Source: an uncultured bacterium
Lineage (GTDB): Bacteria; Abyssobacteria; SURF-5
Length of the DNA: 11,017 nucleotides
Assembly (NCBI GenBank): GCA_964510165.1
Contig: CAZEBC010000135.1
Location: 1-11,017, forward strand
Reading direction: 5' to 3'
This document shows positions 1 to 11,017 of this stretch, piece after piece. Each line of letters starts with the position of its first letter. The stretch's first letter is position 1. Under the pieces are notes generated by a model. That model had not been told where the DNA came from. It worked only from the letters and a program-made list of their open reading frames with translations, and did no database searches. The translations under genes were made by a program, and so were the position numbers.

Positions 1-102
1 TTCTCGATGTCCAAGAGAAACAATATTGACGGCGAGTTGGACCAGGCGATCTTAAGATTGTATATTTCTTCACCGGTCATGATCTCCGTATCTATCGTGC
101 GG

Positions 103-300
103 CCCGACGCCGACCTCGTCATCATCAGCGTCGAGATCAACCGCTGGCTATTGTGGCGCAAAGACCTCGATATCCCGAAACAGTTCGGCATCGAACAGGC
201 GCAGGGCGAAAACGACGGCCCCGGTGGCCTGTTCCACTCTATGCGGCAGATTCCGCCGATTGTCGAAATCTGCCGGGAGTTGCGAGACAGGGTTTCTTGA
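103..300 (+). pseudogene. Internal fragment of a family 4 glycoside hydrolase (NAD-dependent alpha-galactosidase/alpha-glucosidase type), lacking both ends
   Basis: Within ORF 7..300, the segment PDADLVIISVEINRWLLWRKDLDIPKQFGIEQAQGENDGPGGLFHSMRQIPPIVEICREL resembles the GH4 stretch ADFVI..IP.K.G..Q..GE..GPGGLF.ALR.IP...EI.R. The N-terminal GAGS NAD-binding motif and the downstream N..NP motif are absent. TGA stop at 298-300. Confidence 0.7.
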
Positions 301-348
301 CATAAAAACGGAGTTGTGCTAGATTAGCGCCGTTTTCCGTGTTATACT
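297..348 (+). promoter_or_regulatory. sigma70-type promoter(s) for lpdA
   Basis: TTGACA (297-302), 17-nt spacer, TAGATT (320-325) with extended TG at 317-318. A second extended -10, TGtTATACT, lies at 340-348. Confidence 0.7.
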
Positions 349-411
349 CGCCTTACATCGCGTATTCTCGCAAAAAGCACCCCAGATGCGGATTTCGGAG
401 AATCAAGGATC

Positions 412-1800
412 ATGGAAAAATTTCAGGTCGGTATAATTGGAGGGGGACCGGGCGGTTACGTGGCCGCCATAAGGGCTGCGCAACTCGGCGCACGAGTGGC
501 GCTGATTGAAAAAGATGAGGTCGGCGGCACGTGCCTGCTCAGGGGGTGTATCCCGACAAAGGCATTCCTCGCAACGGCTGACTTCCTGGCGAAGGCGCGC
601 GAGGCGGAACGGTTCGGCGTTGAGGTGGGACAAGCCGCCCTGAATTACGCCAAGGCGCTGGAGCGCAAGAACGCGATCGTGCAAAGACTCATCAAAGGGG
701 TTCACAGCCTGCTGAAAGCCCATAAGATCGAGTATGTTCAGGGTGAGGGAAAACTGTTGGGCGACCGCCGCATCGGCGTGACCCTGGCGCAGGGCCAGGC
801 CAAGGGCGAATGCGAGAACATAATTCTCGCCACCGGCTCAACCGAATCGAAACCCGAGATGTTCAAGATTGACGGCGTCAACGTAATAACCAGCCGAGAG
901 GCGCTCGACCTTAAGGACGTACCGGAATCAATACTCATCATTGGAGGCGGATACATCGGCTGCGAGTTTGCCAGCATGTTCAACGATTTCGGCAGCAAAG
1001 TCACTCTCGTCGAGATGCTACCTCAGATCGTTGCTACCGAAGAGAAAGAGGTGGCCCAAACCCTCAAGAGCCAGTTCAAGAAACGCGGCATCAATATCAT
1101 GACAAACGCCAAGATAGTGGGCATGGACGTGTCCGACGGCAAGGTGACCGCCACCCTCGAGTCGGGCGAGACAATCACCGTCCAAAAGGCGCTCGTCGCG
1201 GTGGGACGAAAGCCAGTGACTGAGGGCCTTGGCCTGGACCAGCTCGCCCTCGAGATAACCGAAAAAGGCGGAATCAAGGTCAATGAAAAAATGGAGACCA
1301 GCGTGCCCGGCGTCTATGCCATCGGCGACGTGCTCGGAACGGTGATGCTCGCTCATGTCGCGAGCACCCAGGGCAAAGTGGCTGTCGCCAATGCGCTCGG
1401 GGGAAATGAAAGGTTCTCGTACGATGCCATTCCCAACTGTATCTTCACAAGGCCTGAGATCGCGAGCGTCGGCATGAAGGAAGCCGAAGCAACCGAAGCC
1501 GGGCACGACGTCTCTACCGCCAAGTTCCAGTTCAGCGCCCTGGGGAAGGCCATGATCCTGGAGGACACGACCGGCTTCGTCAAAGTGGTTGCCGACAAGA
1601 AAACCGACAACGTGTTGGGCGTGAGCATGATTGGACCGGGCGTCACCGACATCATCCATGAGGTCGTTTTGGCGATACACGCCGGGATTACCGTGGAGCA
1701 GGTCGCCCGCATGATCCATGCACATCCGACATTGCCCGAAAGCATCCACGAGGCTATCGAAGGAATTCACAAACAGGCGATTCACACGATCAGCCGGTAG
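412..1800 (+). CDS. lpdA: Dihydrolipoamide dehydrogenase (E3)
   Basis: 462 aa. FAD motif GGGPGGYVAAIRAAQLG, redox disulfide GGTCLLRGCIPTK, NAD motif IGGGYIGCEFA, GVYAIGD, MLAHVA and C-terminal HAHPTLPE His-Glu dyad. GGAG/AAGGA upstream of the ATG. Confidence 0.96.
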   Translation: MEKFQVGIIGGGPGGYVAAIRAAQLGARVALIEKDEVGGTCLLRGCIPTKAFLATADFLAKAREAERFGVEVGQAALNYAKALERKNAIVQRLIKGVHSLLKAHKIEYVQGEGKLLGDRRIGVTLAQGQAKGECENIILATGSTESKPEMFKIDGVNVITSREALDLKDVPESILIIGGGYIGCEFASMFNDFGSKVTLVEMLPQIVATEEKEVAQTLKSQFKKRGINIMTNAKIVGMDVSDGKVTATLESGETITVQKALVAVGRKPVTEGLGLDQLALEITEKGGIKVNEKMETSVPGVYAIGDVLGTVMLAHVASTQGKVAVANALGGNERFSYDAIPNCIFTRPEIASVGMKEAEATEAGHDVSTAKFQFSALGKAMILEDTTGFVKVVADKKTDNVLGVSMIGPGVTDIIHEVVLAIHAGITVEQVARMIHAHPTLPESIHEAIEGIHKQAIHTISR

Positions 1801-1818
1801 CTCTTTATCCTGATTTCA

Positions 1819-1848
1819 TTGACGCGATTTATGCCGATATGGTAAGAT
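1819..1848 (+). promoter_or_regulatory. sigma70-type promoter for the polyprenyl synthase gene
   Basis: TTGACG (1819-1824), 18-nt spacer, TAAGAT (1843-1848) with extended TG at 1840-1841, in the gap after the lpdA stop. Confidence 0.55.
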
Positions 1849-1920
1849 AACTCGCTAGATTCCTGGCAAGAGAGACCCGTATTTGCAGTTTCAAACCAGC
1901 AGTAGATGCGGAGACAGTTC

Positions 1921-2916
1921 ATGCAGCTTTCTCAGGATTTGAGCCTTTCCAGTATCTATCAGCCCATCACGGACCATCTCGCAGCGGTGCGGAGTAACTT
2001 GATTCGAGCCCTCCGTGATGCGTTTGGCCTGATTAAAGGCATAGGCTTTGAGAAAACCGTCGTCGAGGGAAAACAGATACGCCCGGCCCTTGCGCTCCTG
2101 GCGGGGCTATCGATGGAACCGGGACAGGGAGCGAAACTGATTGGAGTGGCGGCCGCAAGCGAGATGGCGCACTTCGCCAGTCTGATCCACGACGACGTCG
2201 TTGACGGAGCCAAAACGCGGCGAGGAACCGAATCGGTCAACGCGCGCTGGCACGATAAGGTGGCGGTCCTCCTCGGTGATTACATCATATCGCAGGCGCT
2301 CTATATGCTAAGTGACTATCAAAATGCCGAGGTGATGCGCACCATGATGCGGGCCGTAAAGGATATGTCCGAAGGCGAACTTCGCCAGATCACCGCCAGT
2401 AGGGACGGCATTATCAGCGAAGACGATTACTTTAAAGTGATCCAACACAAGACAAGCTCCCTGATGGCGGCCGTCTGCAAGATGCCGACCCAAGTGTTGG
2501 ACGGTCCGCCAGAACTCTCCGAAGCGATGTACTCCTTCGGTTTCAATTTCGGGATGGCTTTCCAGATTGTGGATGACCTCCTCGACTTCGTCGCTGACGA
2601 GCAGCGCCTCGGCAAACCGATCCTCGGCGATATCCGCGAGGGAAAGGCGACCCTCCCGACAATCTATATGCTGAACAGGCTCGGCGCCAACCAGGCGTCT
2701 CGGGTCGGGAAAATTCTGGAAGAGCGCCAGTTGAGGGATGGCGACAAGGCATGGCTCCTCGAAACCGTCCGTAGTTCCGGCGCCACGGACTATTGCCAGG
2801 AGGTCGCCCGCGACTTCACAACCCGCGCCAAGACGGCGCTCGATATATGCCCAGACTCCGAGTACAAGAAATCAATGTTTGACCTCTGTGATTATGTGCT
2901 GGAGCGGGAACGCTAG
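1921..2916 (+). CDS. Long-chain trans-polyprenyl diphosphate synthase (IspB/HepT-like, quinone side chain)
   Basis: Motifs GKQIRP, first Asp-rich motif ASLIHDDVVD..RRG, AVLLGD, KTSSL, second motif FQIVDDLLD and GKP..DIREGK.TLP. Small Ala/Ser at -5/-4 before the first DDxxD indicates a long-chain product. ATG 1921 is preferred over 1906 because GGAG (1910-1913) sits 7 nt upstream. Confidence 0.93.
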   Translation: MQLSQDLSLSSIYQPITDHLAAVRSNLIRALRDAFGLIKGIGFEKTVVEGKQIRPALALLAGLSMEPGQGAKLIGVAAASEMAHFASLIHDDVVDGAKTRRGTESVNARWHDKVAVLLGDYIISQALYMLSDYQNAEVMRTMMRAVKDMSEGELRQITASRDGIISEDDYFKVIQHKTSSLMAAVCKMPTQVLDGPPELSEAMYSFGFNFGMAFQIVDDLLDFVADEQRLGKPILGDIREGKATLPTIYMLNRLGANQASRVGKILEERQLRDGDKAWLLETVRSSGATDYCQEVARDFTTRAKTALDICPDSEYKKSMFDLCDYVLERER

Positions 2917-3008
2917 ACCGGAGGTTGCGCGAAAACAACCAGCCACATGGCGCAATAGAGACATTTCACCCTTCCGATTTGCGGACAAGCTGAACCGAAA
3001 ATGCTTCT

Positions 3009-3021
3009 TAAGCAATTGATA
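3009..3021 (-). promoter_or_regulatory. IHF binding site
   Basis: Minus strand reads TATCAATTGCTTA, an exact match to WATCAANNNNTTR, about 40 bp upstream of a -24/-12 element. Confidence 0.55.
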
Positions 3022-3060
3022 AGCCATAAGTTGCGTCGGTTGGACACGAGACATCATCCA

Positions 3061-3077
3061 TTGGCAATTCCTTTGCT
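3061..3077 (+). promoter_or_regulatory. sigma54 (-24/-12) promoter
   Basis: TTGGCAATTCCTTTGCT: GG (3063-3064)-N10-GC (3075-3076), close to the consensus YTGGCACGNNNNTTGCW. Confidence 0.65.
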
Positions 3078-3224
3078 CTAACCAGTGTATATCCCGGACA
3101 CTCCTCCCAAGGTTTTCCCAGCCTCGCGCAGCAATGGAAAATTGTGCCGATAGAACAGATGAAAACGACATGGCATGGTGAACAACGGTTCCCTATAACC
3201 ACGTAACATTGCGGCTTCGGTGTG

Positions 3225-3233
3225 TGTTATAAT
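3225..3233 (+). promoter_or_regulatory. Extended -10 sigma70 promoter directly upstream of resB
   Basis: TGtTATAAT (perfect TATAAT at 3228-3233), just upstream of the GGAG RBS at 3245. No properly spaced -35. Confidence 0.55.
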
Positions 3234-3253
3234 AAATCGTGCTTGGAGACAAA

Positions 3254-5062
3254 ATGCTCAGAAAAATCTGGAACTTCTTCTGCTCTGTCAAACTTACCGT
3301 CGTGCTATTCGTGCTGATTCTCATTCCGTCCATCATCGGCACGCTCATCCAACAAAACGTCGACCCCCACAAATACGAGGAACTCTATGGACCGTTCTGG
3401 CACGGCATCTTCAAGTTCCTGGGTTTTTACGACGTCTATCACGACTGGCGCTTTATCATCCTCCTGGTGGCGCTCGGGCTGAATACGTTCGCGTGCACCG
3501 TGAATAGATTCAGGCCCAAATGGCGAATGGCGGGCATGCTGATGACCCATTTCGGCCTTCTGCTCATTCTGCTGGGAGGACTCGCGGGCGCAATATTCGG
3601 CGTCAAGGGAGATATGCGGATTCCCGAGGGACAAACCCTGGACACCATAGAGATACAAAGGGCCGCCAACAGCTCGACCAAACCTTTAGGCTTTCAGGTC
3701 AAGCTGATTGATTTCATCCTCGAGGAGCACGAAGAACCTATCCGCAAGCTGGTGGTCTCCAGTGTCAAGGCCAAGCGACAGGAACGCCACTCCATCAACG
3801 AAGGGAAAACGATTTCTGCCTTTAAACCAAGATGGGCCAAACCGGCGGCGCTGCTCGGAATCGAGGCTGAGCCGCAAGCCCTGATCCATATAAACAAAGT
3901 CATTCCGAATGCCGTTCCCAAGACCGTAATCACGGAAGGCCCCGAGCAGACCGGACTGGCCGCAGTGGAATTCCGGCTTGTCGGCGATACGGCGGAATCG
4001 GCTTTTGCCTTCTCGCAACTTGATCGCCCATATCTTTTCCCTGAAAAGAGCATCGCGGTCGCCTACCAGAAACTGCCGAGTCAAAACCTGATCGATACCC
4101 AAATCCGCCGGGCTGTCTCCCTGATGCGCCCGGTCAATGTTATTGAGCTCACCATTCCGGAGACCGGGGAGAAGAAAACCTATCCTGCCGAGGTCGGCTC
4201 CAAATCACGAGTCGAGGGGACGGACTATAACGTGGAAGTGCTCAGATACGTGCCGGATTTCCTCATCGATACTGCCACCGGCCAGGTTACCACGAGATCC
4301 CAACTCCCGAATAATCCGGCGGTACGAGTCAGAATAGACGGACCCGCCGGCCCTCAGGAGACGTGGCTGTTCGCGAAGTTCCCGACGATGCATGCCGCCG
4401 GAGAGGCGCCGCCCCTTTCGCCGGTCTATATACGCAGCGCCGGCCTCGGAAACATAAAGGATTATGTCGTGCTGTTCAAGCCTGACAACGCCGCTCCAGC
4501 GCTGGTCCACGTCGCCGATAGTAAGGTCGTCTCCAGGAAAGAGGTCGAAATCGGCAAGCCCGTCAAGATCGAAGGAAGAAATATCGAAATAGTCTTCGAG
4601 AAATTCATCGAGAATGCCAACGTGGTGACCGAACTCGTGAACGACCCCACTCGGCCGGGGGGACGGCCGGCTGTCGAGATCACGATCGAGGAGCGAGGCT
4701 CCTTTAAGCCTTATTACCTGTACGCTGACTCCATTGCCGATATCAACGGCTACAGAATGCTGTACCTGCAACAGCCAAGGCCGAGCGATTTCTACAGCAT
4801 TCTTCAAGTCATAGAAGACGGCCAGGTCGTCACCGAGAAAAAGATCGAGGTGAACAACCCGCTTCGCTACAGCGGCTACTCCTTCTACCAGGCATATTAC
4901 GACGATAGAGCGCTCAGTTGGAGCGGCCTCCAGGTTAAGAAGGACCCGGGCATACCGCTCGTATATGCGGGATTCGTAGTTCAGATTCTCGGAATGATCG
5001 TGATCTTTTACATAAATCCGCTGGTGCGAAAGGCTCGAAAATCCCAGCCCGCGCCGGCATAA
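3254..5062 (+). CDS. resB: Cytochrome c biogenesis protein ResB/CcsB (system II) with a large periplasmic domain
   Basis: N-terminus FFCSVKLTVVLF..SIIGTLIQQ, LGFYDVYH..RF, ACT..R, transmembrane His (THFGLLLILLGG), C-terminal IEVNNPLRYSGYSFYQ..Y and SGLQVKKDPG..LVYAGF plus TM helix. Adjacent to ccsA. ATG 3254 follows GGAG at 3245-3248 (track start is GTG 3239). Confidence 0.9.
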   Translation: MLRKIWNFFCSVKLTVVLFVLILIPSIIGTLIQQNVDPHKYEELYGPFWHGIFKFLGFYDVYHDWRFIILLVALGLNTFACTVNRFRPKWRMAGMLMTHFGLLLILLGGLAGAIFGVKGDMRIPEGQTLDTIEIQRAANSSTKPLGFQVKLIDFILEEHEEPIRKLVVSSVKAKRQERHSINEGKTISAFKPRWAKPAALLGIEAEPQALIHINKVIPNAVPKTVITEGPEQTGLAAVEFRLVGDTAESAFAFSQLDRPYLFPEKSIAVAYQKLPSQNLIDTQIRRAVSLMRPVNVIELTIPETGEKKTYPAEVGSKSRVEGTDYNVEVLRYVPDFLIDTATGQVTTRSQLPNNPAVRVRIDGPAGPQETWLFAKFPTMHAAGEAPPLSPVYIRSAGLGNIKDYVVLFKPDNAAPALVHVADSKVVSRKEVEIGKPVKIEGRNIEIVFEKFIENANVVTELVNDPTRPGGRPAVEITIEERGSFKPYYLYADSIADINGYRMLYLQQPRPSDFYSILQVIEDGQVVTEKKIEVNNPLRYSGYSFYQAYYDDRALSWSGLQVKKDPGIPLVYAGFVVQILGMIVIFYINPLVRKARKSQPAPA

Positions 5063-5072
5063 TGGGCAATCC

Positions 5073-5095
5073 GTAGGGGCGCACGGCATGCGCCC
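5073..5095 (+). repeat. GTAG-type REP-like palindrome
   Basis: GTAG + GGGCGCA-cggca-TGCGCCC, 10 nt after the resB stop. Confidence 0.6.
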
Positions 5096-5109
5096 ACAAC
5101 CGAAAAGAT

Positions 5110-5131
5110 GTAGCGCAGGCTTCCAGCCTGC
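5110..5131 (+). repeat. GTAG-type REP-like palindrome (second family)
   Basis: GTAGC + GCAGGCT-tcc-AGCCTGC. Confidence 0.6.
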
Positions 5132-5141
5132 AATCCGAGCG

Positions 5142-5174
5142 CCCTCTCCCAGCGTGAGAGGGTTGGGGTGAGGG
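5142..5174. repeat. CCCTCTC...GAGAGGG..GGGGTGAGGG palindromic intergenic repeat
   Basis: Hairpin CCCTCTC-ccagcgt-GAGAGGG followed by TTGGGGTGAGGG; resembles a widespread REP-like intergenic repeat class (from recall). Confidence 0.5.
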
Positions 5175-5229
5175 AAAAAGAACAACAAAAATTCACGAAT
5201 TCCCACGTGAGTAACGCAGGAGCATCTAA

Positions 5230-6066
5230 ATGAGCGCAACGCTGATAAACTTCTCTTTCGCAACCTTCGTGGTGGCCACTCTGGTCTATGCTGCCAACAA
5301 CTTCATCAGACGCGAGAAGCTGAGTAGGATACTTGGATATCTCGGAAGCCTCTCTCTGCTTGTCGGACTCGTTGTTATAACCGCCGCCATACTCATGCGC
5401 TGGCAAGAGGCCGACCGTCCGCCGTTCAGTAACATGTACGAATCACTCATCCTGTTTGCCTGGTCGATCGCCCTGATCTATCTGGCGTTGGAGCTCATAT
5501 ACAAAATACGCATCGCCGGCGCCCTCGCGGCAATCCTCGCCGTCACCGCCATCGCCGCCGCCTCCTTCTTCGACAGCACCATTGAGCCGCTCATGCCTGC
5601 CCTCCAAAGCAACTGGCTCTTCTACCATGTGCTCACCTGCTTCGTCGGCTACGCCGCGTTCGCCATATCGGCGGCTGCCAGCGTCGTATACCTCATTCTG
5701 AAGGTCAAAGGCAAAGCGCCCGCTCCAACGACCCAAGGCGGCGAGTTGATGCGCGTGCTCGAGTCCTTCAATTACGAATCCGTCCGGTTCGGCTTCCTTT
5801 TTCTTGGAGTCGGCATCATAACGGGCGCCGTCTGGGCAAACGAGTCGTGGGGCACCTATTGGAGTTGGGACCCCAAGGAAACCTGGTCGCTCATCACATG
5901 GATCATCTACGCCATAATGATCCATTTCAAGTACGTGTACGGCCGCTTCGGCGTCAAGGACATACACACCTTCAACGCAATCTGTTCACTCGTCGGCTTC
6001 CTCGCCGTCATCTTCACCTACTTCGGCGTCAACTTCGTGCTGACCGGCCTGCACTCCTACGCCTGA
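5230..6066 (+). CDS. ccsA: Cytochrome c biogenesis heme-handling membrane protein CcsA/ResC
   Basis: 278 aa, multi-TM. PFSNMYESL, PLMPALQSNWL.YHV, WWD domain GAVWANESWGTYWSWDPKETWSLITW, C-terminal GVNF.LTGLHSYA. AGGAG RBS. Confidence 0.96.
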   Translation: MSATLINFSFATFVVATLVYAANNFIRREKLSRILGYLGSLSLLVGLVVITAAILMRWQEADRPPFSNMYESLILFAWSIALIYLALELIYKIRIAGALAAILAVTAIAAASFFDSTIEPLMPALQSNWLFYHVLTCFVGYAAFAISAAASVVYLILKVKGKAPAPTTQGGELMRVLESFNYESVRFGFLFLGVGIITGAVWANESWGTYWSWDPKETWSLITWIIYAIMIHFKYVYGRFGVKDIHTFNAICSLVGFLAVIFTYFGVNFVLTGLHSYA

Positions 6067-6350: not shown

Positions 6351-6507
6351 AGTCCCAGCGCTCACGCCTCCTATTCCGGCGCCAGTGATAGAAACGATCA
6401 CATGGCCGCCCGATTCGTGCAGCGCTTACGCCATAGGCCAGATGCTGGCTAATCGCCCCGTATGAAAACCTCTGCCGTATCCGAAACGGCCAGAAAGGAT
6501 GCCCGAT

Positions 6508-7635
6508 ATGCAAGCCTTCAAGGCGCTCGCTGAAGCCGCCGACACAAGGCACAACCGCTTCGTTCATGACTGGAAAGCACAAGGGAAAAAGGCCGTCGGC
6601 TACGTGTGCACGTACATGCCCGAGGAGATTCTCTTCGCCGCCGATATCCTCCCCTATCGCATTACCGGCAAAAGCGTTACGGACACCTCCCGCGCCGATT
6701 CCTACCTCACCCGGGTGAATTGCACATTTTCCCGATGTTGTCTCGAAGTCGGCATGAGCGGCGGATTCGACTTCCTGGATGGCGCGGCGTTCGTCAACGG
6801 CTGCGACCATATACGCCGGGCATACGACAACTGGAAAGCGCACGAAAGCGCGCTCCCGTTCATGTACATCCTCCCCGTCCCGCACGTCCTGAGCGACGAC
6901 GGCCTCCAATGGTACAAGGAGGAAGTTGTCAAGCTCAAGGAATCTGTCGAGGAGCATTTCGCCGTGACCATCACGGAGAAGAACCTGAAGGAAGCCATAA
7001 AGACATACAACGAAACCAGATCGCTCCTGAAACAGATGTACGATTTGAGGGCCGCTGACCAGCCCGCACTCACCGGCGCCGAGACGATGACCGTCCTGGC
7101 CGCCGCAAGCTCGATGCCCAAACCCCAATTTAACAAGCTCTTAAGACAACTGCTCGACGAGGCGCAGAAGAGAAAGAAAGCGCCGCCGCCAAAATTCCGC
7201 CTGCTCGTCGCCGGCAGCATGATGGACGAGCCGCAGTTCCTCGCCAACGTCGAGGAACTCGGGGCGACAGTCGTCGCCGACGCGCTCTGCTTCGGCGCGC
7301 GCAGTTTCTGGGACCTGACCGAGGAGAACGGCGACCCCTTCGACGCGCTCGTCCGGCGCTACTACTATCATGTGCCGTGCCCCCGCATGGCTGGCCAGTA
7401 CGGCAGACGACGGGCGTTCGTCATGGAGCAGGCCGAGCACGCCAATGTGGACGGCGCGATCCTCGAGCACATCAAGTTCTGCGATATCCACGGCACGGAC
7501 AACGCCCTGTTGAAGGGAGACCTTGAGAAGGCGGGCATCCCCGCAATCGAACTCGAGCGCCAATACGGGCCGCTCGCCGACGCGGGCAGAATCCGCACTC
7601 GTATTCAGGCATTCCTGGAAAGGATTCGGAGATAG
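6508..7635 (+). CDS. HAD/BCR-family Fe-S subunit (HgdB/BcrC/BzdN-like), six-Cys double-cubane-type pattern
   Basis: WKAQGKKAVGYVCTYMPEEIL.AA.ILPYR, ADSYL..NC.FSR, FLDG..FVNGCDHIRR, DALCFGAR, VPCPR, VDGAI...KFCD.HG, GRIRTRIQAFLE. ATG 6508 has AAAGGA 8 nt upstream (track start is 6499). Confidence 0.88.
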   Translation: MQAFKALAEAADTRHNRFVHDWKAQGKKAVGYVCTYMPEEILFAADILPYRITGKSVTDTSRADSYLTRVNCTFSRCCLEVGMSGGFDFLDGAAFVNGCDHIRRAYDNWKAHESALPFMYILPVPHVLSDDGLQWYKEEVVKLKESVEEHFAVTITEKNLKEAIKTYNETRSLLKQMYDLRAADQPALTGAETMTVLAAASSMPKPQFNKLLRQLLDEAQKRKKAPPPKFRLLVAGSMMDEPQFLANVEELGATVVADALCFGARSFWDLTEENGDPFDALVRRYYYHVPCPRMAGQYGRRRAFVMEQAEHANVDGAILEHIKFCDIHGTDNALLKGDLEKAGIPAIELERQYGPLADAGRIRTRIQAFLERIRR

Positions 7636-7638
7636 ACC

Positions 7639-8997
7639 ATGACTGAAACCAACGCGCTCCAACGAATGGTCGATGCCTTCACGCAAGGCTCCATGCTGCC
7701 GGAGGACCTGGACCTCGATTCGCCCGAGATGCAGGCCATCCTCGCCATGCTGCCCGAAGCCCGCAAAAACATGGTCCTCGCGATGGCGAAAGACCCCGAC
7801 GTGCGGAAAATGTCCGCCGTCTTCAACCGAAACCAGGGCAAGTTCTGGCAGAGCGTGCTCTCCGCCAAGGACCAAGGAAAGAAAATTGTATTTCTCCCAT
7901 TCAATTTCTCTCCCGAGATTTTCCACGCAATGGACATGGTGCCCGTCTGCGTCGAGGTGTTAACCACTATGGCGCTCACCCTCGAGGAGGGTGTCGAGCC
8001 GTACCTTGACCTCGCCGTCGAACGCGGCCTGCCCGACACGATGTGCTCGGCCCAGCGCGGCGTCGTCGGCCTGTTCGAGGCCGGCATCCTCGATAAGCCC
8101 GACCTCCTCGTCAACGGCGCGCTCGGCGGTTGCGACCCCAACTCGAAAGCCTTCGAGTATATGGCCGAGAAATTCGACATCCCAGTCCTCTATCTCGACC
8201 TGCCGTATTACCATGACAAGCGCGCAATCGGTTACTACGCGAAGGGCTTCCGCAAAGTGGTCGAGGCCCTCGAGGAAATTAATGGCCGAAAACTCGATCC
8301 CGACCGCCTTCGCGAGGTGGTCAACCAGACCAACAAGGCCACCGAACTCTTCATGGAGATCAACGAACTCAAACGGCACGTGCCGAACCCCGTTCCGAAT
8401 TACTACAACATCCATCATACCGGCACGAAGCTGATGATGGCCGGCACGCCCGACGCGGTCGACTACTACCAGACTGCATACGATATCAGCAAGCAGCGCC
8501 TCAAACAAGGCAAGCACGTGATGCCGGAGGAACGCATCCGCGTCTTCTTCATGTACACAGGCTACTATTTCGACAACTCCATCTTCTCATGGTTCCAGGA
8601 GGAGATGGGCGCCACATACGTGATGGACGTGTTGAATGCGTTCGATTTCAATCCCATCGTTGACACGACAAGCGTGGACACGATGCTCGACGGGCTGTCG
8701 GAAGTAATGTTCAACCTGCCGATGACGCGCCAACTCAAGGGCAGTTGGAACATGGACTCCAACTGGCTCCACGACACGCTCTATTACGCGCGCACCTACA
8801 AGGCCGACTGCTGCGTGTTCACCGGGCACACCGCCTGCAAGCAGGCCTGGGGCGTGTACCGGCTCGTCGCCGACGAGGTCAAGAAACAGCTTGGCATTCC
8901 TTCGCTCCGGCTCGAGGGCGACGGCTGGGATTCTCGCATCACCCCCATGTCCGTCATCAAGGAACAATTCGAGGAATTCTTCGCAACGATCTTATAG
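7639..8997 (+). CDS. HAD/BCR-family catalytic Fe-S subunit (HgdA/BcrB/BzdO-like)
   Basis: 452 aa. PEIFHAMD.VP..VE, GLPDTMCSAQRG, PDLLV....GCD..SK.FE, IPVLYLDLPY, GHTACKQ, LGIPSLRLEGD..DSR. Starts 3 nt after the upstream stop with GGAG RBS. Confidence 0.86.
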   Translation: MTETNALQRMVDAFTQGSMLPEDLDLDSPEMQAILAMLPEARKNMVLAMAKDPDVRKMSAVFNRNQGKFWQSVLSAKDQGKKIVFLPFNFSPEIFHAMDMVPVCVEVLTTMALTLEEGVEPYLDLAVERGLPDTMCSAQRGVVGLFEAGILDKPDLLVNGALGGCDPNSKAFEYMAEKFDIPVLYLDLPYYHDKRAIGYYAKGFRKVVEALEEINGRKLDPDRLREVVNQTNKATELFMEINELKRHVPNPVPNYYNIHHTGTKLMMAGTPDAVDYYQTAYDISKQRLKQGKHVMPEERIRVFFMYTGYYFDNSIFSWFQEEMGATYVMDVLNAFDFNPIVDTTSVDTMLDGLSEVMFNLPMTRQLKGSWNMDSNWLHDTLYYARTYKADCCVFTGHTACKQAWGVYRLVADEVKKQLGIPSLRLEGDGWDSRITPMSVIKEQFEEFFATIL

Positions 8998-9009
8998 GAT
9001 GATGCAATC

Positions 9010-9795
9010 ATGATTGTAGCTGGATGCGATGTAGGCTCATTGACCGCAGAAGCCGTCATCATGAACAACGGCACGATACTCGCCTCCGAGATCATCCGGG
9101 TCCGGCCCACGGCTGAGCAATCGGCCAGGGATGTGATGGACCGGGCGCTCTCGCGGCTCGGCATCTCGTACGGCGATATCAATTACTGCGTCAGCACGGG
9201 GTACGGTCGCGAGACGATCCCGTTCGCCAACGACAACATCAGCGAAATATCGTGCCACGGCCGCGGCGCCCAATGGCTGATCCCGTCGGTCCGAACTGTC
9301 ATAGACATCGGCGGGCAGGATTGCAAGGCGATACGAGTGGACGGCGGCGGGCTGCTCGAGGATTTCGTAATGAACGACAAATGCGCCGCCGGCACCGGGC
9401 GCTCGCTCGAACTCATGGCCGAGGCGCTCGGCGTTGACATCTCGGAACTCGGGCCGCTCTCGCTCCAGGCCTCAAGCCCCGTCGTTATCACCAATCAGTG
9501 CAGCATCTTCGCAGAAATGGAAATCCTTCATTACATGTGCGAGGAGAGGAGCATCTCCGACATCGCGGCAGGAATCAACGAGTCAATGGCCCGCCGGGTT
9601 AAGATGCTTGTGGGCAGAGTCGGCATCAAGAAAGAAGTCGGCATGACGGGCGGCGTTTCCAAAAATGTCGGCGTCGTCAAGTTCCTGGAGAAAATGCTCG
9701 GCGCGAATTTCGTCCAGTTCCCCGTGGACCCGCAGATCATAGGCGCGCTCGGCGCCGCCATCTTCGCCGGCGAAAAAGCAAGAAAGGTCGCTTGA
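9010..9795 (+). CDS. ASKHA-type [4Fe-4S] ATPase activator 1 (HgdC/BcrA/BzdQ-like)
   Basis: 261 aa. GCDVGSLT, STGYGR, EISCHGRG, VIDIGGQDCK, MNDKCAAGTGR (C125), QCSIFAE (C164), MTGGVSKN, PQIIGALGAA. Confidence 0.93.
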   Translation: MIVAGCDVGSLTAEAVIMNNGTILASEIIRVRPTAEQSARDVMDRALSRLGISYGDINYCVSTGYGRETIPFANDNISEISCHGRGAQWLIPSVRTVIDIGGQDCKAIRVDGGGLLEDFVMNDKCAAGTGRSLELMAEALGVDISELGPLSLQASSPVVITNQCSIFAEMEILHYMCEERSISDIAAGINESMARRVKMLVGRVGIKKEVGMTGGVSKNVGVVKFLEKMLGANFVQFPVDPQIIGALGAAIFAGEKARKVA

Positions 9796-9828
9796 CATTC
9801 GCGTAATTCGTTGAATTCGTGACATTCG
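9793..9828 (+). repeat. 4 x 9-bp imperfect tandem repeat (NNNNATTCG)
   Basis: tgacattcg / cgtaattcg / ttgaattcg / tgacattcg; ATTCG at 9797, 9806, 9815 and 9824; first and last units identical. Confidence 0.7.
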
Positions 9829-9862
9829 TCATCCAAATCTCTGATACGCCAAGGAGCTCATA

Positions 9863-10642
9863 ATGATCTACGCCGGATGTGATCTCGGCGCCGTCGCAGC
9901 AAAGCTGGCGCTCACTCAAGACGGTACCATCCTCGCCTGCGAGACGCTCGCGTATCGCAACCTCCCAAAACAAGCCTCCGCAAGCGTGCTGGAGGCGGCG
10001 CTCCGCAAAGCCGGAGTCAAGCGTGACGACATCGCCCATTGCGTCGCCACCGGTTTTGGAAGAAAGCGCGTGGACTACGCACAGGCGGACGTGCCTGAAG
10101 TGATGTGCCTCAGCCGCGCCATCCGACATCTCGCTCCCGCTGTCCGCACCGTCATCGACGTCGGCGGCCAGAGCATCCGCGCATTTAATCTCGGCGAGAA
10201 TGGAAAGATCACTGACTCCACAAACAACGAGAAGTGTGCCGCCGGAACCGGAAAATTCATCGAGGTGATGGCCAAGGCGCTCGAGTTACCGCTCGACCGG
10301 CTCGGCGAACTCGCGCTCGCCTCGAAAGAACCCGTCTCCATCACGAGCCAGTGCGGAGTGTTCGCCGAAAGCGAAGTGATTACCTATGTCAACAAGGGCA
10401 GGGACCGCGCCGACATCATCGCCGGCATCAACCGCTCCGTCGCCGGTAAGACGGCCTCGCTCGTGAGACGGATCAGCCTGACCGAAAAAGTCGCGCTCGT
10501 CGGCGGAGTCGCCAAAAACGCCGGAGTTGTCCGCGACCTCCAACAAGAGCTCGGCATACGCCTGGCCGCGCTCGAGGTTGACCCTCAGCTTGTGGCCGCG
10601 CTTGGCGCCGCCCTCCTCGCCAAGGACAAATCCACTCGGTGA
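9863..10642 (+). CDS. ASKHA-type [4Fe-4S] ATPase activator 2, divergent (BcrD/BzdP-like role)
   Basis: 259 aa. GCDLGAVAAK, ATGFGR, VIDVGGQSIR, NNEKCAAGTGK (C125), QCGVFAESEVI (C164), LVGGVAKN, PQLVAALGAA. AAGGAG RBS. Confidence 0.92.
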   Translation: MIYAGCDLGAVAAKLALTQDGTILACETLAYRNLPKQASASVLEAALRKAGVKRDDIAHCVATGFGRKRVDYAQADVPEVMCLSRAIRHLAPAVRTVIDVGGQSIRAFNLGENGKITDSTNNEKCAAGTGKFIEVMAKALELPLDRLGELALASKEPVSITSQCGVFAESEVITYVNKGRDRADIIAGINRSVAGKTASLVRRISLTEKVALVGGVAKNAGVVRDLQQELGIRLAALEVDPQLVAALGAALLAKDKSTR

Positions 10643-10717: not shown

Positions 10718-10738
10718 GAGTGCCCGCGCTAAAAATAA

Positions 10739-11017
10739 AGCTCCTCACAAGAATTTGTGGGTAGTTTTTCATCAGAATCCGAGGATTTAGTCAAGGATGA
10801 AACCCCGTAAGGGGCGGCCTGAAAGGCCGTCCTTGACGAAATCTCCGAGGATTCTGCTAACATTCTGAAAGGGAAGAAGGAAGAAATGGCGCAGAGACTT
10901 CCCAATTTGGCGAGAAGCTGGAACTGTCCTACCCGCTCAGAATACATAGACCAATACATTTCTTCCTTCTTCCTCAATAACCCTTTGATAATAAATAACT
11001 TACAAACCAAAAAAGGC
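10739..11017 (+). mobile_element. Probable terminal non-coding region of an insertion sequence (ISL3-like), continuing beyond the window
   Basis: AGCTCCTCACAAGAATTTGTGGGTAG resembles ISL3 terminal repeats as I recall them (GGYTCWTC...GTGG), preceded by an AT-rich 8-mer AAAAATAA. It is followed by nested inverted repeats, a TTGACG/TGcTAACAT promoter candidate, an IHF consensus and a drop in GC content. No transposase is visible in the window. Confidence 0.4.

Follow-up and report, generated by a model that had tools for sequence, protein, structure and literature searches.

A BzdNOPQ-like gene module with a predicted double-cubane [8Fe-9S] subunit in an uncultured bacterium

Four genes (positions 6499 to 10642) of the window, the whole 11,017-nucleotide stretch of DNA analysed here, appear to form a module of the BzdNOPQ kind, in which P0001 would be a double-cubane relay subunit, P0002 its catalytic partner and P0003 and P0004 the ATPase (Table 1). 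We put the probability of this reading at roughly three in four. The module is assigned to the BzdNOPQ style because P0002 keeps three invariant cysteines and a glutamate and because two different ATPase genes follow it. Judged from homology, P0001 most likely contains a double-cubane [8Fe-9S] cluster. As a non-catalytic BzdN-like subunit, it would carry this cluster as [4Fe-4S]-S-[4Fe-4S], with C75, C102 and C328 as ligands of the proximal cubane and C37, C264 and C294 as ligands of the distal one. P0003 and P0004 would pair into a heterodimeric ATPase, with a [4Fe-4S] cluster bridging the two, and ATP hydrolysis by this pair would drive electrons of low potential into the double cubane of P0001, to be stored there and relayed to a single [4Fe-4S] cluster in P0002, predicted to be bound by C136, C165 and C400 and to leave its fourth iron accessible to water or substrate beside E106. 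There the bound substrate, probably an acyl- or aryl-CoA thioester, would be reduced.

Table 1. Genes of the module and codons of the predicted cluster ligands in P0001, in window coordinates.
Feature	Coordinates	Strand	Assignment
P0001	6499..7635	+	BzdN-like accessory subunit (Pfam HGD-D), predicted [8Fe-9S] carrier
C37 codon	6607..6609	+	predicted distal sub-cluster ligand; equivalent to BzdN Cys36
C75 codon	6721..6723	+	predicted proximal sub-cluster ligand; equivalent to BzdN Cys73
C102 codon	6802..6804	+	predicted proximal ligand; equivalent to BzdN Cys100
C264 codon	7288..7290	+	predicted distal ligand in C.G.R motif; equivalent to BzdN Cys263
C294 codon	7378..7380	+	predicted distal ligand; equivalent to BzdN Cys293
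C328 codon	7480..7482	+	predicted proximal ligand; equivalent to BzdN Cys327
P0002	7639..8997	+	452 aa, catalytic-type subunit (HGD-D); C136, C165, C400 and E106
P0003	9010..9795	+	BcrAD/BadFG-type ATPase with GGQD motif, C125 and C164; Pfam E=4.6e-59
P0004	9863..10642	+	second ATPase, GGQS replacing GGQD, C125 and C164

Translation of the first gene yields a protein of 378 amino acids with eight cysteines. Six of them lie in the contexts that an earlier note on this DNA had quoted, namely, GYVCTYMPEE (C37), VNCTF (C75), NGCD (C102), DALCFG (C264), VPCP (C294) and KFCD (C328), and the codons of C37 and C328 coincide with the two ends of the region to which that note had been attached. The remaining two cysteines are C80 and C81. 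The true start of the gene is probably ATG 6508 instead of ATG 6499, since homologues are mostly 375 amino acids long, M4 is conserved in at least 90% of them, and AAAGGA sits 8 nt upstream of ATG 6508 but abuts ATG 6499; every residue number of P0001 would then drop by 3. The window has 2 promoter-like sites where 1.5 would be expected and 6 terminator-like sites where 5.3 would be, neither number being above chance.

The best solved relative of P0001 by sequence is BzdN (8s02_B, E=2.8e-56), a subunit of the BZD-type class I benzoyl-CoA reductase. BzdN is also the top PDB match of an AlphaFold2 model of P0001 (pLDDT 93.8), with a Foldseek TM of 0.93 and an rmsd of 1.8 A over 375 columns at 31% identity. 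The six cysteines of P0001 align one for one with the six BzdN cysteines listed in Table 1, which are the [8Fe-9S] ligands in the 2025 crystal structure of BzdNO (PMC11971306). Successive cysteines are separated by 37/26/161/29/33 residues in P0001 and by 36/26/162/29/33 in BzdN, the latter taken from the published ligand numbers. Because the model superposes on BzdN, the six cysteines of P0001 are predicted to converge as two triads. The same paper describes Arg53, Arg267, Arg290 and His330 as charged residues around the distal cubane of BzdN; R54, R268 and H331 of P0001 are the equivalents of Arg53, Arg267 and His330, and H291 stands at the position of Arg290.

The double-cubane cluster protein (DCCP) structures 6eno and 7yyl likewise have cysteines at the equivalents of C37, C264 and C294, in agreement with the DCCP alignment that the earlier note had proposed as a check. 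The DCCP motifs given there (G.FC...PEE and E.C.G.R) hold in the alignment, with FCvyvPEE and EtCiGeR in DCCP against VCtymPEE and AlCfGaR in P0001. The third DCCP ligand cysteine lies three columns past C102 in the ungapped profile alignment, while the pairwise alignment opens a 3-residue gap that brings it onto C102, consistent with spacers of x29 in DCCP and x26 in P0001. The suggested pairing of an [8Fe-9S] relay subunit with a three-cysteine, aqua-[4Fe-4S] catalytic subunit finds the same layout in the BzdNO crystal structure (PMC11971306). However, the published structure with this layout is that of a BZD-type enzyme and not of the methylbenzoyl-CoA reductase type named by the note. MbdN (9g87_B) keeps just the three proximal cysteines; the profile alignment places Gln at the position of C37, Phe at that of C264 and Ser at that of C294. 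Judged by its sequence, MbdN can therefore not bind a double cubane as BzdN does. HadC has Pro in the C37 column, with a cysteine three residues later, and Ala in the C264 column.

The translation of P0002 contains the three cysteines and the glutamate that the earlier note had listed for the partner subunit, as well as C104, C391 and C392. Across 69 compared sequences, C136, C165 and C400 are invariant (69/69) and E106 is kept in 66. E106 aligns with HadB Glu55 and with a Glu of MbdO, and C165 aligns with BzdO Cys128; the distance from E106 to C136 is 30 residues, as from Glu65 to Cys95 in BzdO, although the BzdO alignments did not extend to this region. The position of the catalytic His131 of BzdO is occupied by N168 in P0002 (Asn in 69/69) and by Phe in MbdO in the same profile alignment, and an Asp-x-Asn that never varies follows the second cluster cysteine of P0002, where BzdO has His. 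Of the two ATPases, P0003 matches HadI (4eht, E=4.6e-66) and MbdQ (E=2.7e-63). It is 42% identical to P0004, both have two cysteines aligned to those of HadI, and the GGQD/GGQS asymmetry between them is conserved. The gene order N-like, O-like, ATPase, ATPase is repeated at three loci (L001, L003 and L005), the flanks of which have nothing in common with the window beyond the four genes. According to their source records, the closest relatives belong to Candidatus Abyssubacteria, Hydrogenedentota, Planctomycetota and Deltaproteobacteria/Desulfobacterales. Neither a ferredoxin gene nor a gene of the benzoyl-CoA pathway lies in the window.

What kind of chemistry would such a module perform? P0001 might carry a double cubane and still serve a radical enzyme of the 2-hydroxyacyl-CoA dehydratase kind, or some other enzyme without reductive chemistry, in which ATP would only prime one recycled electron. 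HadB is indeed the best match of P0002 in both the profile search against the PDB (E=1.3e-22, compared with 1.1e-14 for BzdO and 3.7e-13 for MbdO) and Foldseek (TM 0.75-0.76, compared with 0.74-0.75 for BzdO and 0.72-0.73 for MbdO, all at 16-17% identity), but these gaps are small, and the two near-equal comparisons do not discriminate a reductase from a dehydratase. The residues near the cluster lean the same way as HadB, as P0002 reads C-K after its third cysteine like HadB, where BzdO has Glu381 and Gly382 after Cys380 (PMC11971306), and carries Asn in place of BzdO His131; the nearby genes, moreover, include no aromatic-pathway genes. On the side of the accessory subunit the likeness breaks down, with HadC having no cysteine at the C37 and C264 positions, and the two ATPase genes with their conserved GGQD/GGQS asymmetry correspond to the subunit make-up of BzdPQ and MbdPQ. 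Among the matches listed, each PDB entry of a solved dehydratase or of DCCP contains a single activator chain. Dehydratase and DCCP activators are homodimers. We therefore consider a dehydratase-like enzyme unlikely and infer reductase chemistry for the BzdNOPQ-like module.

The conservation of the cysteines bears on the cluster itself. A close set of 121 P0001 homologues (60-85% identity) leaves 69 of the 378 positions invariant, and all six cysteines are among them, each being Cys in 121/121. This includes C37, C264 and C294, whose conservation the earlier note had singled out as a test of its proposal. C80 and C81, in comparison, are Cys in 101/121 and 111/121. Around the distal cysteines, R54 is found in 121/121 of these homologues, R or K at 268 in 121/121 and H331 in 120/121. 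In a distant set, consisting of the 133 nearest full-length cluster representatives (29-63% identity, with a mean column identity of 33%), Cys occupies the positions of C75 in 133, C102 in 132 and C328 in 132, and those of C37 in 125, C264 in 122 and C294 in 122. The proximal triad is thus complete in 132/133 representatives and the full six-cysteine set in 117/133; the distal triad is complete in 117, reduced to two cysteines in 8 and to one in 2, and absent in 6. The six-cysteine pattern in P0001 exceeds chance.

R54 accompanies the distal cysteines, being present in 111/117 six-cysteine rows of the distant set versus 1/6 rows without any distal cysteine, but this co-variation is not significant after correction for relatedness (independent-pairs sign test, median p 0.5, on a FastTree of the 133 rows built with the trait columns removed). 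On the 133-row FastTree, the six-cysteine state needs at least 11 changes, or 7 when well-supported branches alone are counted, so that incomplete triads either have several origins or in part reflect errors of sequence and alignment.

The representatives with an incomplete distal triad (16/133), together with the N-like partners at loci L006 to L008, which have G, L and A at the C37, C264 and C294 positions, are what favours a single [4Fe-4S] cluster in P0001, as would be bound by HadC and MbdN, with C37, C264 and C294 serving as structural residues, as ligands of a separate unbridged cluster or as regulatory thiols. However, each of these three cysteines has its counterpart among the distal ligands of two double-cubane proteins whose structures were solved independently, none of them varies within the clade, and R54, R268 and H331 are retained beside them; we regard a single-cluster P0001 as highly improbable.

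At the level of families, both subunits score above the gathering cut-off (28.4 bits) of Pfam PF06050 HGD-D (P0001, 314.7 bits, E=1.4e-93; P0002, 195.5 bits, E=2.4e-57), and both stay below the cut-offs of all the narrower NCBIfam models considered. The top NCBIfam score of P0001 is to NF040772 double_cubane (202 bits; cut-off, 350), followed by TIGR03190, the BzdN equivalog (189.2; 453.8), NF052456 for HadC (169.4; 700) and TIGR02263 for BcrC of the Thauera type (129.2; 421.15). P0002 reaches 34.7 bits against TIGR03191 for BzdO (cut-off, 448.6), 69.3 against TIGR02260 for BcrB (486.55) and 59.5 against NF052455 for HadB (750). DCCP classes I and II share the 7-Cys motif CX19CX18-19CX29CX166-170CX32-34CX32C. 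This motif is absent in P0001, which has G57 instead of Cys 20 residues after C37 and spacers of 26, 161 and 29 where the motif has 29, 166-170 and 32-34. The link to DCCP drawn by the earlier note hence stands for the six aligned ligand cysteines and falls for family membership, given the score below 350 bits and the missing 7-Cys motif. That P0001 is itself a DCCP-type enzyme, with the double cubane as an active site reducing small molecules and P0002 as an accessory, would suit the top NCBIfam score and the six common ligand cysteines but is hardly credible, as the score lies far under the cut-off, the seventh cysteine is missing and the cysteine spacings differ, DCCP is a homodimer whereas a three-cysteine partner and two ATPases are encoded here, and BzdN is nearer by both sequence (194 vs 107 bits) and fold (TM 0.93 vs 0.88). 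Matches to P0001 in the plasmid collection are distant (at most 31.5% identity), YjiM included, and no BzdN reference is among them.

Does the BzdNOPQ-like module then belong to any characterized group? None of 130 distant representatives reached any curated cut-off in an NCBIfam scan at E<=1e-90, which left out P0001, P0102 and P0393, and 128 of them had no hit; P0334 (392 bits) and P0385 (429 bits) approach the BzdN cut-off of 453.8 bits yet stay under it. With 117/133 representatives having six cysteines and 0/130 of those scanned reaching a curated cut-off, a large unexplored group is supported. P0002 stands at about the same distance from BzdO, MbdO and HadB and has its invariant Asp-x-Asn, and on these grounds the module could belong to a distinct uncharacterized clade of heteromeric double-cubane enzymes, using ATP to drive very-low-potential chemistry on some substrate that is not benzoyl-CoA. 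This we offer tentatively, at somewhat less than even odds. The literature search found no paper linking Abyssubacteria with benzoyl-CoA.

The 2025 paper (PMC11971306) names DCCP and BzdN as the only proteins in which an [8Fe-9S] double cubane had been reported, and it presents BzdNO as the first enzyme with such a cluster to have a defined role in catabolism. The six-ligand signature is found here in another clade, which has a divergent catalytic partner of its own, and most of the nearest 133 representatives show it, with none of the 130 scanned falling into a curated family. Heteromeric double-cubane relay subunits may thus be common among uncultured anaerobes, acting on substrates yet to be found. 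Taken alone, the window is a matter of annotation: the cofactor of P0001 can be predicted with confidence, and the benzoyl-CoA reductase type credited with the cluster is corrected. Supplementary Figs 11 and 12 of PMC11971306 are family alignments and may already tell which benzoyl-CoA reductase types keep the six cysteines.

Among known systems, the BzdN/BzdO pair of Aromatoleum sp. CIB (8S02, 8S1T, 8S2R; PMC11971306) resembles the module in its six ligand cysteines at near-identical spacing, the equivalents of Arg53, Arg267 and His330, a partner with three cysteines and a Glu, and two small ATPase genes in the order N, O, ATPases. It differs in that P0001 is only 31% identical to BzdN, with His for Arg290, and P0002 only 16% identical to BzdO, with Asn for His131, and in that the window is without bzd pathway or ferredoxin genes. 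DCCP of Carboxydothermus hydrogenoformans (6ENO, 7YYL) and Escherichia coli YjiM (NF040772) have six cysteine ligands at positions homologous to those of P0001, and DCCP shares its fold (TM 0.88-0.89) and a dependence on an ASKHA-type ATPase. DCCP, however, is a homodimer that uses the double cubane as its active site and has a 7-Cys motif with longer spacers, whereas P0001 is without the seventh cysteine and about 24-26% identical. HadB/HadC, the (R)-2-hydroxyisocaproyl-CoA dehydratase (3O3M), belongs to the same family and fold, HadC reaching a TM of 0.90-0.91 to P0001 and HadB, the best match of P0002, aligning in Glu55 and all three cysteines; unlike P0001, HadC is without Cys in the C37 and C264 columns, and its cluster has been described in papers including PMC11971306 as a [4Fe-4S] cluster with an extra sulfur ligand. 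MbdN/MbdO, the 3-methylbenzoyl-CoA reductase of Thauera chlorobenzoica (9G87, 9GAI, entries for which the literature search found no paper), is a heterotetrameric ATP-dependent module, as predicted here, and keeps the three proximal cysteines and the MbdO Glu at the E106 column, but differs from P0001 at all three distal positions.

The BzdN-like subunit under study (P0001) is followed by a catalytic-type partner (P0002) and two ATPases (P0003 and P0004) in a four-gene operon with successive intergenic gaps of 3, 12, and 67 nt. The same-strand genes 5' of P0001 were assigned by Pfam to pyridine-nucleotide disulfide oxidoreductase, polyprenyl synthetase, ResB, and CcsA-type cytochrome c assembly protein families, with 432 nt between CcsA and P0001, and appear to have no relation to the operon. 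Downstream, a minus-strand open reading frame matched no Pfam or NCBIfam family. The true start of P0001 is probably the second ATG, at 6508 (M4), because its homologues are mostly 375 aa long and conserve M4 to at least 90%, and an AAAGGA lies 8 nt before 6508 yet abuts 6499; every residue number, counted here from the ATG at 6499, would then be lower by 3.

Positions of the features discussed (L prefixes mark related loci on other genome contigs; all other positions are in the window)
Feature	Position	Strand	Description
Upstream genes	1-6066	+	GH4 glycosidase fragment, Lpd-like flavoprotein, polyprenyl synthetase, ResB and CcsA (system II cytochrome c maturation)
P0001	6499-7635	+	378 aa; Pfam HGD-D (PF06050)
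C37 codon, P0001	6607-6609
C80-C81 pair, P0001	6736-6741		Five residues past ligand C75
C328 codon, P0001	7480-7482
P0002	7639-8997	+	452 aa; Pfam HGD-D (PF06050)
C165-K170, P0002	8131-8148		C-D-x-N-x-K, following the second cluster Cys
C391 to C400, P0002	8809-8838		C391 and H397 just N-terminal to the third cluster ligand, C400
P0003	9010-9795	+	261 aa; Pfam BcrAD_BadFG
GGQD, P0003	9310-9321		As in HadI and MbdQ
P0004	9863-10642	+	259 aa; Pfam BcrAD_BadFG
GGQS, P0004	10163-10174
Downstream ORF	10729-11016	-	95 aa, open-ended
Paralogous pair	L001:6024-8750		O-like and N-like genes
Paralogous pair	L003:12085-15236		O-like and N-like genes
N-like partners of L006-L008	6725-7882 each		Distal Cys replaced
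Fusion protein	L009:8921-10957		678 aa; six-Cys domain, then ATPase domain

The Cys residues of P0001 are C37, C75, C80, C81, C102, C264, C294, and C328. The earlier note had proposed a six-Cys [8Fe-9S] site, and the six motif contexts it gave are exact in the translated ORF; C80 and C81 were absent from its list. A phmmer search of PDB sequences matched five distinct sequences: BzdN of the BZD-type benzoyl-CoA reductase (8s02_B; E=2.8e-56, 194 bits), the dehydratase subunit HadC (3o3m_B; E=3.3e-36, 128 bits), the double-cubane cluster protein DCCP (7yyl / 6eno; E about 1e-29, 107 bits), and MbdN (9g87_B; E=9e-27, 97 bits), a subunit of the 3-methylbenzoyl-CoA reductase of Thauera chlorobenzoica. 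Counted along the alignment, Cys36/73/100/263/293/327 of BzdN lie opposite C37/C75/C102/C264/C294/C328, with spacers between successive Cys of 36/26/162/29/33 in BzdN versus 37/26/161/29/33 in P0001. According to Fuchs et al. 2025 (PMC11971306), these six BzdN thiolates carry a [4Fe-4S]-S-[4Fe-4S] cluster, and Arg53, Arg267, Arg290, and His330 surround its distal cubane; the aligned P0001 residues are R54, R268, H291, and H331. DCCP likewise places Cys opposite all six positions, including C37, C264, and C294, as the earlier note had expected. HadC, in contrast, has Pro opposite C37 (a Cys follows three residues on) and Ala opposite C264, and in the 121-sequence P0001-family profile against the PDB, MbdN retains the three proximal Cys (opposite C75, C102, and C328) and has Gln, Phe, and Ser at C37, C264, and C294, so that by sequence the methylbenzoyl-CoA reductase (MBR) type lacks the six-Cys site. 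A literature search for the MbdONPQ structure entries found no paper.

The AlphaFold2 model of P0001 (mean pLDDT 93.8, pTM 0.92) gave BzdN as the first Foldseek match in the PDB (TM 0.93, rmsd 1.8 A over 375 columns, 31% identity) and HadC as the second (TM 0.90-0.91), with DCCP (TM 0.86-0.89) and MbdN (TM 0.87) listed third and fourth. P0001 has the structural hallmarks of a BzdN-type double-cubane subunit. As a candidate equivalog of BzdN, DCCP, HadC, or BcrC, it fails all four curated NCBIfam cut-offs, and it departs from the seven-Cys DCCP motif, as worded in PMC7317905, in lacking the seventh Cys and in its shorter spacers. C80 and C81 occupy a position different from that seventh Cys.

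The homologue search returned 816 matches, and the sources of the best 120 of these (60-85% identity) include metagenome-assembled genomes of Candidatus Abyssubacteria/Abyssobacteria, Deltaproteobacteria, Desulfobacterales, and Planctomycetota. All 120 are generically annotated, for example as 'benzoyl-CoA reductase subunit C', '2-hydroxyacyl-CoA dehydratase', or 'bzd-type ... N subunit'. In their alignment with P0001 (A1, also used for the structure model), 69 of 378 positions are invariant, including all six Cys; C37, C264, and C294, whose conservation in close homologues the earlier note had made a test, are present in 121/121 sequences. Among 50%-identity cluster representatives, an exhaustive search retrieved 3,892 relatives at E<=1e-3, 709 of them reaching E<=1e-30; the P0001 clade is one representative (P0102, 63%), and all others are at most 43% identical. 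A distant alignment of P0001 with 132 of the best 150 representatives (340-420 aa; 18 fragments or fusions excluded) has a mean column identity of 33%. Its proximal triad is complete in 132/133 rows and all six Cys, hence the distal triad, in 117, the remaining rows having two (8), one (2), or no (6) distal Cys. None of 130 representatives reached any NCBIfam cut-off, with two coming near that of BzdN. C81 is Cys in 111/121 clade members and 56/133 distant rows; C80 is Cys in 101/121 and falls outside the six commonest residues of its column in the 133.

P0002 stands far from all characterised catalytic subunits: its NCBIfam scores are 35-69 bits versus cut-offs of 449-750, and Foldseek gives TM 0.72-0.76 at 16-17% identity alike for HadB, BzdO, and MbdO. 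Its top homologue among the best 120 of 146 matches (94% identity) is from a Candidatus Abyssubacteria metagenome-assembled genome. The Cys residues are C104, C136, C165, C391, C392, and C400, and E106, noted earlier together with C136, C165, and C400, is indeed present. Across P0002 and 68 near-full-length homologues (34-94% identity), C136, C165, D166, N168, K170, and C400 are invariant, as is the C-D-x-N-x-K motif as a whole, with F88 in 68/69, E106 in 66/69, C391 in 65/69, and H397 in 67/69. In profile alignments with the PDB, the cluster Cys of HadB and MbdO lie opposite C136, C165, and C400, Cys95 and Cys128 of BzdO opposite C136 and C165, and HadB Glu55 and an MbdO Glu opposite E106. 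BzdO, according to PMC11971306, binds its [4Fe-4S] cluster through Cys95, Cys128, and Cys380, with water or hydroxide as a further ligand beside Glu65 and His131; N168 occupies the place of His131, a proposed acid/base, where HadB has Val and MbdO Phe.

P0003 and P0004 share 42% identity, and each has HadI and MbdQ as top matches. Both carry Cys125 and Cys164 opposite HadI Cys, positions that in HgdC and HadI ligate the bridging [4Fe-4S] cluster. GGQD in the first ATPase gives way to GGQS in the second, not only in the window but also in L001, L003, and L005, and the conservation of this difference suggests that the pair may form a functionally asymmetric heterodimer.

Scanning genome contigs with P0002 yielded 13 loci. 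In L001-L005, an O-like gene 66-79% identical to P0002 has a six-Cys N-like gene directly upstream, and two ATPase genes follow in L001, L002, L003, and L005, whose contigs reach that far (that of L004 stops inside the O-like gene); flanking genes vary from locus to locus. L001 and L003 each hold a second, paralogous N-like gene, also six-Cys, in an O-like/N-like pair lying a few kb away from the orthologous operon, and the paralogous set of L003 includes one ATPase gene and, upstream, a PadR regulator. The O-like genes of L006-L008, one locus being titled Desulfonema limicola, are about 30% identical to P0002. In their N-like partners all three distal Cys have been lost, with G, L, and A in their place, and the residues matching R54 and R268 are Trp and Met, making these proteins a natural instance of the HadC/MbdN-like state. 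Fused forms also occur, in a 920-aa representative (P0318) whose residues 553-914 match P0001 and in the Lachnospiraceae protein of L009, which is similar to the fused 'class III' DCCPs that Jeoung et al. 2020 (PMC7317905) mention.

The most probable mechanism is that of BzdNOPQ, following its description in PMC11971306: ATP hydrolysis by the ATPase dimer would energise electrons, the [8Fe-9S] cluster of P0001 would accept and store at least two, and the three-Cys cluster of P0002 would pass them to a bound CoA ester. Two features, the asymmetric ATPase encoded by two genes and the predicted double cubane, speak more for a reductase than for a dehydratase; neither is proof, since MbdN shows that a reductase can do without the distal triad. 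The six-Cys finding is correct and its double-cubane interpretation is supported by homology; P0001 belongs to an uncharacterised clade, with the biology already published for a relative. That relative is of the BZD type and not, as the earlier note had it, of the methylbenzoyl-CoA reductase type, whose MbdN has no distal Cys.
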